Notes under the pieces: model-generated
What the model saw: only the letters and a program-made list of their open reading frames with translations
Database searches by the model: none
What the model was told of the DNA's origin: nothing
DNA from: Promethearchaeota archaeon
GTDB lineage: Archaea > Asgardarchaeota > Lokiarchaeia > Sigyniarchaeales > SOKP01
Length of the DNA stretch: 64,000 nucleotides
Reading direction: 5' to 3'
Assembly (NCBI GenBank): GCA_019058445.1
Contig: JAHPZA010000001.1
Location: forward strand, 64,001-128,000
Shown: piece after piece, positions 39,442 to 45,760 of the stretch
Numbering within the stretch: position 1 is the stretch's first letter
Layout of the letters: every line of letters begins with the position of its first letter
Position numbers and translations under genes: made by a program

Positions 39442-40023
39442 ATGGGAAGAAGAAAGAGAAAACAACAAACCTATAAAAGAGTAAAAAGAGTCCCCAAAAT
39501 CTTTAATTGTCCAAATTGCGGGGAAAAGTCTGTAAAAGTGGAAAACATTAGGAAATCAGCAATAGCAACTGTAAAATGTGGTTATTGTGGATTAACTAAA
39601 GATGTCTTAGTGAATTCTATATCAGAACCTGTCGATGCGTTTGGTGATTTTATCGACATTTATTATGCAGATCAGGAGCTTTTAAGATTAGAAAAACGTG
39701 TTGACAAACTAAAAAGTGAGAAAGAATGGGCAGATTTAGCCTTTTGTTATTCTGTATTATCTGACATATGTAAAGCTAAAGCAGCTGAATCGTTAGAAGA
39801 TGATGAAAATGTTGATATAGAGGAGGCTAACAAATGGAAGATAAGGGCAGAGGAATATAAAAGAAAGGAGAAGGATGCTTTATTGACATTAGACACAAGT
39901 GAATTAGAGAGTGGTATTAAAACTGATGATGAGTCATTATTTACCGAGCACGATGAAAGTTCAATGAAAAAAGAGAAAAAGATTGAGGATATTTTCGACG
40001 ACCCAGGCTTTCTTGAGTTTTAG
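39442..40023 (+). CDS. elf1: Transcription elongation factor Elf1 with long C-terminal extension
   Basis: MGRRKRK...FNCPNCG...CGYCG...EPVDAFGDFID. Confidence 0.88.
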   Translation: MGRRKRKQQTYKRVKRVPKIFNCPNCGEKSVKVENIRKSAIATVKCGYCGLTKDVLVNSISEPVDAFGDFIDIYYADQELLRLEKRVDKLKSEKEWADLAFCYSVLSDICKAKAAESLEDDENVDIEEANKWKIRAEEYKRKEKDALLTLDTSELESGIKTDDESLFTEHDESSMKKEKKIEDIFDDPGFLEF

Positions 40024-40116: not shown

Positions 40117-41853
40117 TTAAGAATTATAGCCCCGTATTTTATTTTTAACACTTGAGGGAATATGAGTCCAAATAGGCAATTTTAAGACAAAATTAAAGAA
40201 TTGGTTAGGACTCATATTTTCATGCTTAATAAAATGGCTCCAATTATAATAAGCTAAATTATTGAAAAGATTCATCAGGTTTACTCCCATAGGATTATAT
40301 TTTGATGAAAAAAATCTAGCTAAATAACTTCCGATACGATTTGTCTGGGGGCTTGATTCCGGATACACTGATTCTGCCAATGGTCTGTTGAAGATTTCAT
40401 AAATAGAAATAATAGGAATGAGTTTATCCAACAATTCGTTTATTTTTGCACCATAGCTATCATCATCCAAAGAGAGAGAACTTAATTCGTTCAATTTTCT
40501 GACAGCATAGCGATAATGTCTCTCTTTGAAATATAGCCACATTTTAGCCATTTGATCCCGTAGTTCTTTAATTGATTCAATCACTTCAGCATCTTTAAAA
40601 TTAAATCCTTGTAATTTTTCGAATCTTTTAATAAAAGTCAATAATATTGAGTTTGTAGATTCTTGATCAAAATCGTCTTCACTCTCATCCTTACTTAAAA
40701 GCTTGTATTTTAACTCCTTTTCAGTAGGGGTATGTATTGTGTGTGTAAATAATGGTGTTGTCCATAAGTATTCCCGGAGTTTTTCCATTAATTTTATCGT
40801 TTGGCCATAGTTTTTAATAACCGTAAATTGTATTGATAAATACTTATCTGGGATTACTTGTTCTATGAAATACCTTATTTTATCTTTAATTTTTAAATAT
40901 TTTACTACGTTCTTCTTTTTTTTCTTGAGAGCAGAGACTTTTCTACTTAATAACTTATCAAGATTCATCAATTTTTCGATATATGAATAGAAATCTATAT
41001 CATACTTTTGAATAATGTTAGTATGTGATATTAAGGGAGTCTTTAATACTTGTGGTGAGGATGAGTCAAGAGCTATCTTGTCAACACTCATCGCATGATC
41101 TCCAATGGTATATGAAAAGATCACATTTTCAAGCGCTTCTTCTAGTGAAGCAAATTTTCCTAAGTAGTTTGGAACGCCCGTAAAAACTCCATGTAATAAG
41201 GTATTAATTCCTTTGAAAGTATCATTATCATATTCTGAAATAATAACTGATTCAAATTCTCCCGGATGATGTCTTTTCGATTTGATTTTCTTGTTAACAA
41301 GCACAATGGCTTGATTCGCTTTATGGCATACAGTATAGCTCCATTTTAAAAATGGTTGTATATATTTTACCATATTAAGATGATAGTTATAAAATTCGGG
41401 TCCGAAATAGATTGGAAATCCAAAACCTCGTGAAGTAGCAAAGATAAACTGAAATACATTTCTTGTTTTCTCTCCTTTTAGTAGCCCTGGAAATTTAAAG
41501 TGTAACACAATTTTAGGGTATAGCGCAGCTAACCCTAAGTTCATCCAAGCTTCAAACAGAATAATACTATCAGGAAATCTAAATGAATCTCTTTTACTTA
41601 AAAAATCATCACTTAACGTATTAAGAGCTATTGGGATGGTAAAGAGCCAATCTCCTTTTTTTCTAATAGTTGTTAATCCTTCTTTAAACTTTTTAAAGAT
41701 GAGCGGTTGGATTTGTTTTTGTATTTCACTTTTTTTATGATAATAGTTATTCATTACTCGAAACAAAGAGAGCATTTCAAGTATCTGCCTTTGAGAATTA
41801 TGGGCTACCTTTACATGAGAGCTTTTTTCCAATTTAAGTGTAGAATTCTGCAC
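40117..41853 (-). CDS. Hypothetical protein
   Basis: 578-aa ORF; no recognised motif. Confidence 0.75.
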   Translation of the reverse strand: MQNSTLKLEKSSHVKVAHNSQRQILEMLSLFRVMNNYYHKKSEIQKQIQPLIFKKFKEGLTTIRKKGDWLFTIPIALNTLSDDFLSKRDSFRFPDSIILFEAWMNLGLAALYPKIVLHFKFPGLLKGEKTRNVFQFIFATSRGFGFPIYFGPEFYNYHLNMVKYIQPFLKWSYTVCHKANQAIVLVNKKIKSKRHHPGEFESVIISEYDNDTFKGINTLLHGVFTGVPNYLGKFASLEEALENVIFSYTIGDHAMSVDKIALDSSSPQVLKTPLISHTNIIQKYDIDFYSYIEKLMNLDKLLSRKVSALKKKKKNVVKYLKIKDKIRYFIEQVIPDKYLSIQFTVIKNYGQTIKLMEKLREYLWTTPLFTHTIHTPTEKELKYKLLSKDESEDDFDQESTNSILLTFIKRFEKLQGFNFKDAEVIESIKELRDQMAKMWLYFKERHYRYAVRKLNELSSLSLDDDSYGAKINELLDKLIPIISIYEIFNRPLAESVYPESSPQTNRIGSYLARFFSSKYNPMGVNLMNLFNNLAYYNWSHFIKHENMSPNQFFNFVLKLPIWTHIPSSVKNKIRGYNS

Positions 41854-42028
41854 TGACTATAATCAACTGAAGATCTAAATGATCTTTTTAATTAATGTAA
41901 TTATTTATTATGATTTTAAATATTTGAATCTTAATTAAAAAAATGATTTCTTGTAGAATATCAATGATAATAGCTGAAGGATAGAAAATTAAGATTTAAA
42001 AAATGAGAAAAATAATAAGCTATTTTAT

Positions 42029-42490
42029 CTACTTCTTCCGCTTTGCGAAAAGCTGCTTCAACTCACCCATGATTGCCCCACGTAGGCTTTGAGGGCTTGC
42101 GGGTCGGCTAGGTCCGGGTGGTGGGCCTCCAGGGGGACCTCCGGGTGGACCTCCAGGGGGAGGTGGTGGACCTCCAGGGGGACCTCCGGGTGGACCTCCA
42201 GGGGGACCTCCAATAGAAGGTGCTATAGGTGCTACAGGCGCAGCGCCAGGAGAAGCTGGAGCTGCCACACCTCTAGTTTTTATAGCATTTAAATCGTTCG
42301 TCATCGTGTTAACTCTAGATTGTAGACTTGAAATTTGTGTTTTTAAATCAGCTAAAGATCCATCAACAAGGTCAGGTATTCGTAAAACAATTGTCATTAT
42401 TTTTTCAACAATGTCCCCAAACGCATTTACTTTTTCTTCTATTGGGGATTTCTTGGCTTTATCAAGGAAGCTTGCAAATTCTTCGGCTAT
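42029..42490 (-). CDS. Coiled-coil plus polyproline plus C-terminal amphipathic helix protein (WAVE/WASH-like architecture); probable ATA start, 153 aa
   Basis: GGTGA RBS then ATA at 42490 gives IAEEFASFLDKAKKSPIEEKVNAFGDIVEKI ahead of the track ORF; (GGPP)n and PPPP repeats; ends SLRGAIMGELKQLFAKRKK. Confidence 0.75.
   Translation of the reverse strand: MAEEFASFLDKAKKSPIEEKVNAFGDIVEKIMTIVLRIPDLVDGSLADLKTQISSLQSRVNTMTNDLNAIKTRGVAAPASPGAAPVAPIAPSIGGPPGGPPGGPPGGPPPPPGGPPGGPPGGPPPGPSRPASPQSLRGAIMGELKQLFAKRKK
42117..42210. repeat. Coding GC-rich tandem repeat encoding (GGPP)n
   Basis: Repeated ggacctccagggg / ggacctccgggt 12-mers. Confidence 0.85.
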
Positions 42491-42648
42491 GGCTAATCAC
42501 CAATAATTTTTGTTAATAATTACATTTTGAAAGATTATTTTTTCTAATAATTATATAATAGTTTTGTTTAATAAAAATATGTTTTGATGCAAACTTACCT
42601 TATACCTTGAAAAATAAGAGTAGAAAAAAAGTATAATATATATAGGAC

Positions 42649-43269
42649 TTAACTCATCTCAGTGGTTGAATCCTTTAGTTTTAACCATAAATCGTCAAGT
42701 TCGTCTTGCATTTGAACAAATTGTTCAATTTCTTTAAGTAAAATATTTCTGGCCCTATCGAAATCTCTTTGTAAATCATTTAACTCGTTTTCAAGCATAG
42801 TAAGTTTACTTCCCTCAATCATTTTATTTTTAGTTTTTTCTATGCTTAAAGCTTTTTTAATTACGCCTGATCTCCTGCCGGCAATAGTAGTAAGAGCTTC
42901 TGCAAATAAATCTCCCCTAGTTGCTAAATCATCTTTTCGAATAGCTAGATCTTTGATTGAGTTAACAAAATCATTGCTTGCTTCAATATATTTATCATTT
43001 TTGTGGATAAAATCTTGATAGTAATTTATTTCATCATCTTTTACATTTGATTTTGATTCTCTTGCAAGGGTTTGCATTTGTTTTAACACATCTCTAAATG
43101 TTCGATTAAGCAATTGCCGGGCGATATTTAATTTCGCAATATTGTCTGCAAGTTTTTTATGAGAATCAGAAACTGTTCTCTGTAATCTTGCGACTTTTTT
43201 AAGATGGGAAGCTAAATCTTTTTCCATTTTCGCAAGATCTAATTCATCTTCATGGGTTATAATTGGCAT
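42649..43269 (-). CDS. All-helical protein, BAR-domain-like
   Basis: 206 aa with three long amphipathic helices; KLTMLENELNDLQRDFDRARNILLKEIEQF resembles SNX/Vps5-type BAR helix 3. Confidence 0.55.
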   Translation of the reverse strand: MPIITHEDELDLAKMEKDLASHLKKVARLQRTVSDSHKKLADNIAKLNIARQLLNRTFRDVLKQMQTLARESKSNVKDDEINYYQDFIHKNDKYIEASNDFVNSIKDLAIRKDDLATRGDLFAEALTTIAGRRSGVIKKALSIEKTKNKMIEGSKLTMLENELNDLQRDFDRARNILLKEIEQFVQMQDELDDLWLKLKDSTTEMS

Positions 43270-43359
43270 TTTATCAAATCTCGAAAAAATTTTTTGTTTT
43301 ATTCAACTACGTTATTATGATCATAATAACTTTTTTTATATATTTTTATGCAATCAAGT

Positions 43360-44394
43360 TCAGAAAGGAAAAATCGCAGTAATGATATTATCTTTATAGT
43401 TAGCCTTTATGACTTTAGCTTGTATTTCTTTTCCTAGTAAATTATCCGAATATTGAAATGGCTTATTTAGAAGTATCTTTATTCCAATGTCTTTAGCAAT
43501 TTTGCCTATGCATTCATTCGGCCATCTTCCTATGGAGACTATTTCTAATTTTATAACATCCCCCTTTCTATACGGTAAAGGCATACCTACTTTTCTTTTT
43601 TGGATATTAAAATCCGTAGGGCCCAGTTTTAATTTTAAATCATATCTCCTTTCTAGTTTAGATAATTGTTTATAAAAGTAGTCCCATGATTTAGGTCTAA
43701 TTTTTTTCAATTTTCGACCTGTTTTATAAACTAAATATTTTTGAATTCCGAGTTGAATTTTTTTCTTAGAAAATCCTTGATTTCTTAAATTAATTACGAA
43801 TTCAATGATATCTTCGATATCCTTGTCATTCTCTCCAGGAAACCAAACCGGAGCTAATAAAACGTCGATATTTGTATTAAGTATCGAATATATGTTTTTA
43901 ATTAAGTTTTTTAAATCATAATTTTTACAATCACAAAAATATTCGGCTTTTTCTTGGTTTAAGGTATTGAGGCTAATGTTTATACGTGAAAGTTGGACAT
44001 CTGCCAATTTTTTTATATTTTCATTAGTTAATAATAACCCGTTACTTTGCATCGAAATGGTTTTCACACCTTCTAATTCCCAGAGCATTTCTATTAAACC
44101 AAATAATTCAGAGTATAATAAGATTTCTCCATAAGGAGCTAAGTGAATTTCTATATTGTATGATCCTTTAATGTCTATGAGTTGCTTAATTTTTTGAATT
44201 AAATATTGAGGTTCTACGATAAAATTATTTATAAAATCTCCTGCGCTCACAAAACAATATTTACATTTGAGATTACAAAGGGTTAGAGGTTTGAGTTCAA
44301 TAATATTTGTCCCCCGATCAATTACACCTATGAAATCGACTCCATAGAGCGGAATAGCCGAGCTTTGATTGACATAAATCGTATTTGGACTCAT
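43360..44394 (-). CDS. Radical SAM protein (COG2100 type) with C-terminal TRAM-like domain
   Basis: IPLYGVDFIGVIDRGTNIIE..CNLKCKYC. Confidence 0.9.
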   Translation of the reverse strand: MSPNTIYVNQSSAIPLYGVDFIGVIDRGTNIIELKPLTLCNLKCKYCFVSAGDFINNFIVEPQYLIQKIKQLIDIKGSYNIEIHLAPYGEILLYSELFGLIEMLWELEGVKTISMQSNGLLLTNENIKKLADVQLSRINISLNTLNQEKAEYFCDCKNYDLKNLIKNIYSILNTNIDVLLAPVWFPGENDKDIEDIIEFVINLRNQGFSKKKIQLGIQKYLVYKTGRKLKKIRPKSWDYFYKQLSKLERRYDLKLKLGPTDFNIQKRKVGMPLPYRKGDVIKLEIVSIGRWPNECIGKIAKDIGIKILLNKPFQYSDNLLGKEIQAKVIKANYKDNIITAIFPF

Positions 44395-44406
44395 TTTGGG
44401 ATATGG

Positions 44407-45480
44407 TTATAATTTATATCTTAATATACCTACAATGGAACCTAAATCTATTATTTGTTGACCAGTAGAAGTTTGACTACTAACTATATCAACTTCCCCT
44501 CCAGAATATTCCACGTTGGTAATAATTCTCTCAATACTAAGTTTTTGAGTTTTTGAAGTCCCTCGAATTAATATATCTGCCACAAATAATTGTTTAATAG
44601 CACCCCTCTCAGAAGCTTCGCTGTTTTCATTAATACCAATTGAAATTAAATCGGGGTCTGTATTAAATAATTTAAAAATTTCTTCAATTTTTTCCGTTTC
44701 TTGTAATATTTTTATTTTCTCTTTTAATCCCGCCAATTCTTTAGATTTTAATGTCTCTCGAATAGCACTTTCCGTACCGGAGCTAGCGTGTATGCTTCTA
44801 ATTTTATGTATGTAATTGGGATTATATTTTTCTTTTAAATAATTTAGTAATAAATCTCTTGTATTTCCCGGGCCACAAAAAACAATTAAATTAATATCAG
44901 TTGAGTTTAGATTTTCTTCAATAATTTTTTTTAAATTTTCAAAAAAGTCAGTTAACGCTTTATTTCTTTGTGATTGTTCGTATCTTTTACCTGGTATGTG
45001 TGATTTTATTGTAGCTATCTTATTTTGACTAAAGTTTGTAATAATTTCGATTGTTGCAAGTCCCGTTTCAATCGCTATCATTAATATTACAAAGTTAGAC
45101 TCAAACTTAGAGGATTGTTTTAATCTTTTCATTTCTTGAGAAGACCATTTTTCTTTTATGATCGCAATTTTCTGTCCTTTTTCGATATTAAAGGTATGGT
45201 ATGTACCAAAACTTACAAAATCTTCTGGTCCCTCTATAATTGTCCCTTTAACTCTCAATCTATTTGAAAATTCATGAAAGGAAACATCCTCAACATTTAA
45301 TTTTAAAAACATAGGTTTTCTCTCACCTTTAGAGCCCTCTTTAAGTACTACTCTTCTTTGGGTTCGCGCAGCGACTTTATCATTTTTCGAGATGATATTA
45401 TACAGTGTCCACAGATCGTTTAAATTTTCTATTTTAACGATAATCTCTCCTTGTTTTTGATTGATTTCACGTATTTTCAA
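44407..45480 (-). CDS. pelA: Pelota/Dom34 ribosome rescue factor
   Basis: ENLNDLWTLYNII, FHEFSNRLRVKG, GTYHTFNI, LGSIVGILRY. Confidence 0.95.
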   Translation of the reverse strand: MKIREINQKQGEIIVKIENLNDLWTLYNIISKNDKVAARTQRRVVLKEGSKGERKPMFLKLNVEDVSFHEFSNRLRVKGTIIEGPEDFVSFGTYHTFNIEKGQKIAIIKEKWSSQEMKRLKQSSKFESNFVILMIAIETGLATIEIITNFSQNKIATIKSHIPGKRYEQSQRNKALTDFFENLKKIIEENLNSTDINLIVFCGPGNTRDLLLNYLKEKYNPNYIHKIRSIHASSGTESAIRETLKSKELAGLKEKIKILQETEKIEEIFKLFNTDPDLISIGINENSEASERGAIKQLFVADILIRGTSKTQKLSIERIITNVEYSGGEVDIVSSQTSTGQQIIDLGSIVGILRYKL

Positions 45481-45610
45481 ACTTAAATCTAAACTCCAAT
45501 AAAATTTTCTTATATTATAAGAAGAATAGATAGTAGAAAAATTGATTTACTATTAGAATGAAGTGAAGTTTAAAAAAATAGAAAAAAAATAAAGAAAAAA
45601 GAAATCTGAA

Positions 45611-45760
45611 TTATCCCTCTCCTAAAGCCTGCTTAACCTTCTCTAATTCTTCCATACGCTTCCTTTTTTCCTCTTCTCGCTTTTTCATCTCTGCTTCGTC
45701 TGGCTTAGCTAGAGATACTCCTTTCTTAATTTCATTTTCAAGCTCTTTATCTATTGGCAT
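45611..45760 (-). CDS. 49-aa peptide with WH2/actobindin-like motif and charged helix, absent from the ORF track
   Basis: MPIDKELENEIKKGVSLAKPDEAEMKKREEEKRKRMEELEKVKQALGEG; AGGTG RBS; TTATAAAT at about 45805-45812; T-rich tract after the stop. Confidence 0.75.
   Translation of the reverse strand: MPIDKELENEIKKGVSLAKPDEAEMKKREEEKRKRMEELEKVKQALGEG

Follow-up and report, generated by a model that had tools for sequence, protein, structure and literature searches.

Does a run of minus-strand genes in the genome of a Promethearchaeota archaeon encode one module which couples actin to curved membranes, or do separate elements lie side by side? The genes are found in a stretch of 64,000 nucleotides (nts) of contig JAHPZA010000001.1 (positions 64,001 to 128,000), hereafter the window, and encode proteins of 49, 206, 153 and 578 amino acids (aa). 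The actin cytoskeleton of Asgard archaea is dynamic. To our knowledge, only profilins and gelsolins have been characterised as Asgard actin regulators, and no nucleator or monomer-sequestering peptide has been described. The original prediction, made from the sequence of the window, had read a BAR-like protein, a “mini WAVE/WASH” protein and a WH2-like peptide as one minimal ancestral actin-regulatory module. The predicted minus-strand genes are all present, each in its predicted place. The evidence presented below favours another arrangement, to which we give a probability of about 0.55: the locus would hold two independent cytoskeleton or membrane elements of one Lokiarchaeia order, syntenic in a single family, while the 578-aa protein would be unrelated. 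The first element is the 49-aa protein and the second is the pair of 206-aa and 153-aa proteins, as follows:

45611-45760, minus strand: gene of the 49-aa WH2/beta-thymosin-like microprotein (from its open reading frame (ORF), conservation and selection)
42649-43269, minus strand: gene of the 206-aa BAR-like three-helix protein (from an AlphaFold2 (AF2) model and structural matches)
42029-42490, minus strand: gene of the 153-aa coiled-coil and proline-rich protein, starting at ATA (from the conserved N-terminus of relatives)
42488-42490, minus strand: ATA start codon of the 153-aa gene (from alignment with relatives)
42501-42497, minus strand: Shine-Dalgarno-like sequence GGTGA of the 153-aa gene, 6 nts upstream of the ATA

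The host order takes in Promethearchaeum syntrophicum MK-D1, Ca. Harpocratesius, Lokiarchaeota CR_4, Sigynarchaeota and Lokiarchaeum ossiferum. Its families are labelled f1 to f4 here, the host family being f1.

A stand-alone WH2-like unit

The 49-aa gene is matched in 37 of 41 relatives and is flanked by a GGTG ribosome-binding site upstream and a T-rich tract downstream. Its ratio of nonsynonymous to synonymous substitution rates (dN/dS) is 0.05-0.15, with dS saturated, and the protein is under strong purifying selection. It had been proposed that the module was overlooked in part because this gene is shorter than 50 aa. It is indeed a real gene of that size, but not an entirely overlooked one, as its family already accounts for more than 500 clusters of 48-53-aa “hypothetical proteins” in public databases.

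The protein is composed of an N-terminal amphipathic helix (ELENEI), a glycine, an L-A-K-P motif and a charged helix. The consensus of the family is ELxxEIKxGxxLxK[VPI]DE followed by the charged helix, forming a unit of about 47 residues in which L17 is invariant, as are G14 and K19, with leucine or isoleucine at the helix positions. An amphipathic helix and an LKKT/V-type motif with a conserved leucine, the features expected of a WH2 domain, are thus both present in the family alignment. A search of 177,635 PDB sequences with the family profile returned nine hits, four of which are WH2 chains from structures with actin (N-WASP, E 7.9e-5 and 0.043; Spire, E 0.42 and 1.4), and all four align to the motif of the unit. 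With a profile built from the orthologues only, N-WASP is still the best PDB match (E 3.6e-4). Similarly, an exhaustive HMMER search of 1.84 billion representative proteins gave 73 hits (library E 1.4e-4 to 4e-4 for the four concerned here), including four which are bona fide WH2 proteins according to Pfam (E 1e-13 to 1e-7). These four match the motif part only and carry polyproline tracts and acidic-Trp tails.

The unit shares with the WH2 and beta-thymosin proteins (N-WASP, WAVE, WIP, Spire and Cobl; thymosin beta-4, ciboulot and actobindin) the short amphipathic helix, the glycine and the L-x-K-[V/P] motif with its invariant leucine. The helix which follows the motif is common to the unit and the beta-thymosins; the Pfam model of the latter (PF01290) gives no hit at E <= 1, the motif-plus-helix architecture being similar. 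Like thymosin, the unit is found singly; like the repeats of Spire, Cobl and ciboulot, it forms tandem arrays, and it is also found beside other actin binders. It differs from WH2 in that A, Q, D or S often takes the place of the first basic residue of LKKV, and in its length of about 47 residues with a long E/K/R helix. It remains below the Pfam threshold. It is furthermore confined to one archaeal order and so may be convergent. In the literature, no independent WH2-like unit was found in archaea, and only the LKKT-type linkers described inside Asgard gelsolins turned up (PMC9433394). These linkers are actin-binding motifs of Asgard archaea, as the unit is proposed to be, but they consist of four residues within gelsolin folds, whereas the unit is independent and is found alone, in tandem, or fused to profilin, GTPases, leucine-rich repeat (LRR) or RING domains.

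Tandem and fused forms of the unit

In family f2, including MK-D1, nine to ten units follow one another in proteins of 479-505 aa, the ten-unit form being seen in MK-D1 and Harpocratesius. The genome which contains the window encodes a 258-aa fusion of profilin and the unit (G000:C3, about 76016-76789; L069:2017-2790, plus strand), the N-terminal domain of which matches solved Asgard profilins in the PDB (E 1e-10). Forms with profilin and 1, 2 or 4 units were found, and the unit is also fused to Ras/Arf-like GTPases, to an LRR domain and to a RING domain. Asgard profilin-gelsolin “ProGel” fusions provide a precedent for the joining of profilin to a second actin-binding module.

Two of these proteins are of metagenomic origin, P0344 (415 aa), in which the unit comes after the LRR domain, and P0351 (180 aa), in which it precedes the RING finger; the LRR-then-unit arrangement recalls leiomodin. 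The 258-aa profilin fusion contains one unit followed by a C-terminal domain of about 55 aa without known fold, and its gene is next to those of a CheB-like response regulator and a Ras-family GTPase. No actin gene was found among the neighbours of the profilin fusion and tandem genes.

Co-precipitation with Lokiactin in L. ossiferum

A published Lokiactin co-immunoprecipitation (co-IP) in L. ossiferum allows the tandem form to be followed in a cultured species. The values given here come from part of Supplementary Table 2 of 10.1101/2025.11.30.690169, and its locus tags were calibrated to map position with Lokiactin itself (GNAMCCOK_03343, at 3.92 Mb). The ten-unit protein of L. ossiferum has 488 aa and a computed monoisotopic mass of 56.41 kDa. 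GNAMCCOK_04085, also of 56.41 kDa, was detected with 44 peptides at a co-IP log2 fold change (log2FC) of 4.53 (adjusted p 0.002), directly beside Lokiactin in the table (log2FC 4.44). The tag predicted from the position of the ten-unit gene is about 4026, within 1.5% of the observed 04085. Hence the ten-unit protein is apparently GNAMCCOK_04085, as judged by mass and map position and not by sequence. GNAMCCOK_04217 (56.2 kDa) had been considered for the same protein and was dropped in favour of GNAMCCOK_04085. The ten-unit protein is not discussed in the paper. Among the rows of the table covered here, the highest enrichment is that of GNAMCCOK_04250 (20.61 kDa, 91.7% coverage, log2FC 5.1), which the paper does not name.

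The WH2-like reading of the 49-aa protein, already put forward in the original prediction, is thus strengthened by the profile matches to true WH2 proteins, by the profilin fusions and by the Lokiactin co-precipitation of a ten-unit relative assigned by mass and position. From these observations we infer a direct interaction with actin, in which the 49-aa protein would act on its own as a WH2/beta-thymosin-like unit. The barbed face of Lokiactin monomers would most likely be bound by its amphipathic helix and L-x-K-[P/V] motif, and its charged helix would run along the monomer, such that G-actin could be sequestered or shuttled. The profilin-fused relatives and those with 2-10 units in tandem could hold several monomers.

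A 206-aa protein with a predicted BAR-like fold

The AF2 model of the 206-aa protein, built on 17 relatives, has a predicted local distance difference test score (pLDDT) of 92 and consists of three helices of 65, 71 and 53 residues (6-70, 78-148 and 153-205). The best Foldseek matches are nearly all BAR domains (E 6.5e-3 to 5e-2), and the top six of an exhaustive structural search (VIA) are all BAR domains, with Z between 11.1 and 13.3. Arfaptin comes first (Z 13.3 over 186 residues, root mean square deviation 4.7), followed by SNX1-SNX5, Lsp1, ACAP4, SNX1 and APPL1 (Z 11.1-11.4), and the best BAR matches cover 165-187 of the 206 residues. The BAR-like fold suggested in the original prediction is therefore borne out by a confident model, with the qualification that it comes with no membership of a BAR family by sequence. 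The protein falls in no Pfam family, the BAR, Vps5 and Arfaptin models have no match in it nor elsewhere in the genome, the sequence profile matches only designed coiled coils in the PDB, and a fold search of the ESM Atlas with the model returned nothing useful. A CDK5RAP3 match below the cut-off was set aside as a coiled-coil artefact.

The family counts 496 members, all labelled hypothetical. The protein has a conserved N-terminal MPIITHEDE and a basic KTKNK tip. Invariant basic residues gather at the tip between helices 2 and 3 (KNK) and along helix 1, and the basic stretches span residues 21-70 and 131-150. With the BAR superfamily (arfaptin, SNX-BAR/Vps5, APPL, ACAP and Lsp1), the protein has in common a length of about 200 residues, three long antiparallel helices and a basic distal tip. 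It differs in lacking a sequence match to any BAR Pfam model, the likeness being that of a predicted monomer fold.

An Asgard “Vps5-BAR” was described previously (PMC10307638). The L. ossiferum authors named two further proteins, Bar1 (24.73 kDa) and Bar2 (51.36 kDa), and mass and position rule out both as orthologues of the 206-aa protein. The orthologue in that species has a mass of 23.92 kDa and the product of the neighbouring gene one of 29.28 kDa, which fit GNAMCCOK_02568 (23.9 kDa) and GNAMCCOK_02567 (29.26 kDa); the genome (G226) was taken to be that of L. ossiferum in part through this match of two consecutive genes to consecutive locus tags by mass in the proteome table. GNAMCCOK_02568 is abundant (mean log2 intensity 22.0) and weakly enriched with Lokiactin in the part of the table covered here (log2FC 0.71, adjusted p 0.053).

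A coiled-coil and proline-rich protein with an ATA start

The reading frame of the proline-rich protein is open back to a TGA at 42499-42497, and starting at its first ATG would give a form of 122 aa. Relatives keep an N-terminal M-A-E-E-F, and in 38 of 41 relatives the match to the extended frame sets in at residues 2-5. The homologous start codon is ATA here and in a second species of the genus, with the GGTGA 6 nts upstream, and no ATG, GTG or TTG start is available for the full frame in these two species. At the same position, other relatives use TTG or carry ATT. A contig of depth 23 from the source reads shows no differences around the ATA codon. The gene therefore spans 42029-42490 and encodes 153 aa rather than the 122-aa ATG form, because the conserved start falls on an ATA preceded by GGTGA where no canonical start is present, in agreement with the earlier proposal of an ATA start. 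At the GGPP-coding repeat (42126-42200), the Logan contigs of the source run are broken up into short fragments. Other metagenome-assembled genomes (MAGs) may contain the gene in a form cut short at this point, as seen at some contig ends in relatives.

The protein consists of conserved N-terminal helices, a trimer-like coiled coil (about residues 44-75), two conserved GxPPPPPG motifs and a C-terminal helix. The coiled-coil profile finds its matches among trimeric coiled coils (reovirus sigma-1, trimeric adhesins and Lpp), and a match to BRICK1 (E 0.044) stands around rank 40 among generic trimeric coiled coils. The C-terminus, xPVSLRGAIMGELKxLFAKRK, is near-invariant in the family, with a net charge of +3 to +5, and its helix is moderately amphipathic (hydrophobic moment 0.33-0.36).

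This layout invites comparison with actin regulators. WASP/WAVE and Ena/VASP proteins are built along similar lines, with helices at the N-terminus that oligomerise, then a polyproline tract, and finally a short helix conserved at the C-terminus, and the 153-aa protein could function by the same logic: the coiled coil would cluster polyproline arms which recruit profilin-actin, and the C-terminal helix would bind actin. The two GxPPPPPG motifs, with a near-invariant amphipathic helix behind them, and the resemblance to trimeric coiled coils are compatible with such a role. In addition, the L. ossiferum proteins brought down with Lokiactin include an ARF GTPase (PMC13716822), and residues 13-153 form a module which Sigynarchaeota and CR_4 carry behind the GTPase domain of Arf/RagA-like proteins. 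However, the profile of the C-terminal helix has no PDB match and shows no relation to the WH2-like unit, Loki profilins reportedly do not bind VASP polyproline (PMC8410842), and the inferred L. ossiferum orthologue (taken to be GNAMCCOK_02219) was not seen among the co-IP rows examined. The co-precipitated ARF, of 38.1 kDa, was considered as a carrier of the fusion and is not tied to the module nor to any fusion, the GTPase-plus-unit fusion P0128 coming from a MAG and not from L. ossiferum. The actin-regulator reading of the 153-aa protein is consequently quite unlikely.

The description of this protein as a “mini WAVE/WASH” finds no support either. It has no WH2 and no acidic Trp tail, and no WH1/WHD or EVH1 domain was recognised in it. 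The tail is basic (KRKK) and without Trp in 18 relatives, no Pfam hit (WHD and WH1 included) was obtained, and nothing resembles a WHD signal beyond the generic coiled coil. Moreover, we know of no complete Arp2/3 complex which could be a target in Lokiarchaeia.

A different comparison is offered by the targeting helices of MinD and FtsA and by the polybasic tails of small GTPases, in which the chain likewise closes with a basic amphipathic helix behind a flexible linker. The Arf-like GTPases of Sigynarchaeota and CR_4 terminate in the module of residues 13-153, an arrangement resembling a hypervariable linker with a membrane anchor. The differences lie in the moderate hydrophobic moment and in a linker of conserved, rather than variable, polyproline. 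By this analogy the C-terminal helix may, with low certainty, be an anchor to a membrane or partner rather than an actin binder. The GTPase fusions are 443-477 aa long (L077:2202-3632 and L078:2223-3551, both minus strand); they begin with an unassigned domain of about 140 aa, and the whole module forms the tail.

Taken with the 206-aa protein, this leads to a model in which a BAR-like helical scaffold, possibly dimeric and membrane-binding, would work in a complex with the neighbouring oligomeric coiled-coil protein. The polyproline arms of the latter would end in a basic amphipathic helix most likely anchored to the membrane or to a partner, in the manner of a MinD-type targeting helix or of the hypervariable tail found on small GTPases.

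One module or two elements

The order of the minus-strand genes is 49-aa, Pelota, radical SAM, 206-aa, 153-aa and 578-aa. The genes between and around the two elements are the following:

44407-45480, minus strand: Pelota gene (from Pfam)
43360-44394, minus strand: radical SAM gene, without assigned subfamily (from Pfam)
40117-41853, minus strand: gene of the 578-aa orphan protein (from its ORF)
39442-40023, plus strand: gene of an Elf1 zinc-ribbon protein of 193 aa, extended at its C-terminus by a long acidic stretch

Throughout f1, the 206-aa and 153-aa genes lie next to each other, except where a contig break intervenes and in a single genus with a rearrangement. In f2-g17 they are neighbours with their order reversed, f3 has them in convergent orientation, and in f4 a single gene stands between them. 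The remaining f2 genera, MK-D1 and L. ossiferum among them, show no linkage of the two. Adjacency in four families and three arrangements supports a functional tie between the two genes, and in this respect the predicted linkage of the BAR-like and proline-rich genes is confirmed. As to synteny, proposed earlier as a check, the linkage of the pair recurs between families of the order, but the 49-aa gene keeps its position within f1 only and is 77 kb away from the pair in the genome G030.

Could the BAR-like protein, the Pro-rich protein and the WH2 peptide nevertheless constitute one ancestral nucleation-promoting module linking curved membranes to actin? All three proteins have the right general shapes, their genes are syntenic throughout f1, and the weak enrichment of the L. 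ossiferum BAR-like orthologue with Lokiactin points in the same direction. Against this, the linkage of the 49-aa gene is lost outside f1, Pelota and radical SAM intervene, and the Pro-rich protein has neither a WH2 nor an acidic/Trp tail and gives no WHD signal beyond the generic coiled coil. T-tracts and TATA-like sequences fill the intergenic gaps of the locus, giving each gene its own T-rich terminator and promoter-like region; the genes are therefore separate transcription units, with the exception of Pelota and radical SAM, which are 12 nts apart and remain paired across the whole of f1. Nor can the module be called ancestral, because the unit and the 206-aa family were found in one order only: in 200 genomes across the phylum the unit is found in f1 and f2 only, with 0 of 157 elsewhere, and the 206-aa family has 1 marginal match among the 157 genomes that belong to other Asgard families. 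For the 153-aa family, the search covered the host order. The single-module reading is thus very unlikely.

The two-element reading has its own weaknesses. The matches of single units to WH2 reach only 8-10 bits, significant E-values being obtained from repeated copies. The Pfam WH2 model (PF02205, gathering threshold 23.1 bits) gives no hit on the 49-aa protein and 13.3 bits (E 0.07) on the best tandem relative, and it recovers none of the loci of the unit across the 41 genomes. A Z of 13.3 lies at the margin of the values that long helical bundles attain by chance, and the BAR likeness is structural only. The identity of GNAMCCOK_04085 with the ten-unit protein is one of mass and position, the 153-aa orthologue was absent from the co-IP rows examined, and the profilin report clouds the role of the polyproline arms. 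Altogether, the WH2 likeness of the unit is specific but modest, and could be convergent.

The same facts feed an alternative in which nothing in the locus concerns actin: the 49-aa protein would be a charged microprotein with a WH2-like pattern arising by chance, and the pair would be generic coiled-coil proteins with some other role. The unmet Pfam threshold, the weak scores per unit and the chance level of Z for long bundles are in its favour, as is the automatic UniRef label “Smc” on the MK-D1 orthologue of the 206-aa protein. Chance would have to account, however, for the profilin fusions with 1, 2 and 4 units, for the enrichment of WH2 chains among very few PDB and library hits, for a 56.41-kDa protein at the top of the Lokiactin co-IP in the portion of the table covered, and for BAR domains in all six best structural matches of the 206-aa model. 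A locus devoid of actin function is accordingly unlikely, if less so than a single module, and two independent elements remain the preferred reading.

Genes around the two elements

Pelota and radical SAM are housekeeping genes, outside any actin function. The 578-aa gene is confined to f1. Its product has no Pfam or NCBIfam family and no PDB sequence or Atlas match, and its AF2 model is poor (pLDDT 51.6), the helical part matching generic bundles only (Z <= 7.2). It is an unrelated, family-specific orphan.

The 153-aa gene adjoins Elf1 in MK-D1, Harpocratesius and L. ossiferum, and nearly does so in the window. ORFs of 205-206 aa beside the Pro-rich gene in MK-D1 and Harpocratesius were considered as paralogues of the BAR-like protein and proved to be Elf1 homologues. 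The Elf1 homologue of L. ossiferum (genome G226) is matched by GNAMCCOK_02218 (24.01 kDa), with a co-IP log2FC of 1.36 (adjusted p 0.034) in the part of the table covered here.

The genome is 4.6 Mb long with about 29% G+C. Among its six actin-family loci are two Lokiactin paralogues which are 88-100% identical to the copies of relatives, and the homologues of its genes carry the names Promethearchaeota or Lokiarchaeota, all of which marks the host as an Asgard archaeon. In-frame TAA stops are present in two actin-family loci, two in G000:C10:653495-654577 and one in G000:C9:593898-595019; these loci could be pseudogenes or something else.

Implications for actin and membranes in Lokiarchaeia

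In a wider and more speculative scheme, which we hold to be rather improbable, the whole order, MK-D1 and L. ossiferum included, would possess a WH2-based actin toolkit made of a thymosin-like binder, profilin-WH2 fusions and ten-unit proteins as possible nucleators. This toolkit would be fed by a membrane-bound, GTPase-linked BAR-like/polyproline platform, an archaeal functional analogue of the coupling between BAR proteins and nucleation-promoting factors. If so, the ten-unit proteins could be the missing actin nucleators of Asgard archaea.

The restriction to one order cautions against regarding either element as inherited by eukaryotes. What the window itself adds is the BAR-like/polyproline pair, the GTPase-fused form and the ATA start. 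The occurrence of the unit in stand-alone, profilin-fused and tandem forms makes the control of Lokiactin assembly testable with peptides, a case strengthened by the apparent co-precipitation of the tandem form with Lokiactin in a cultured species, within the portion of the published table considered. Both cultured species have orthologues of the 206-aa protein, of the ten-unit protein and of the 153-aa gene, although the genes of the pair are not adjacent there. Together with its GTPase-fused version, the BAR-like/polyproline pair offers a second, independent entry to membrane shaping in these cells.

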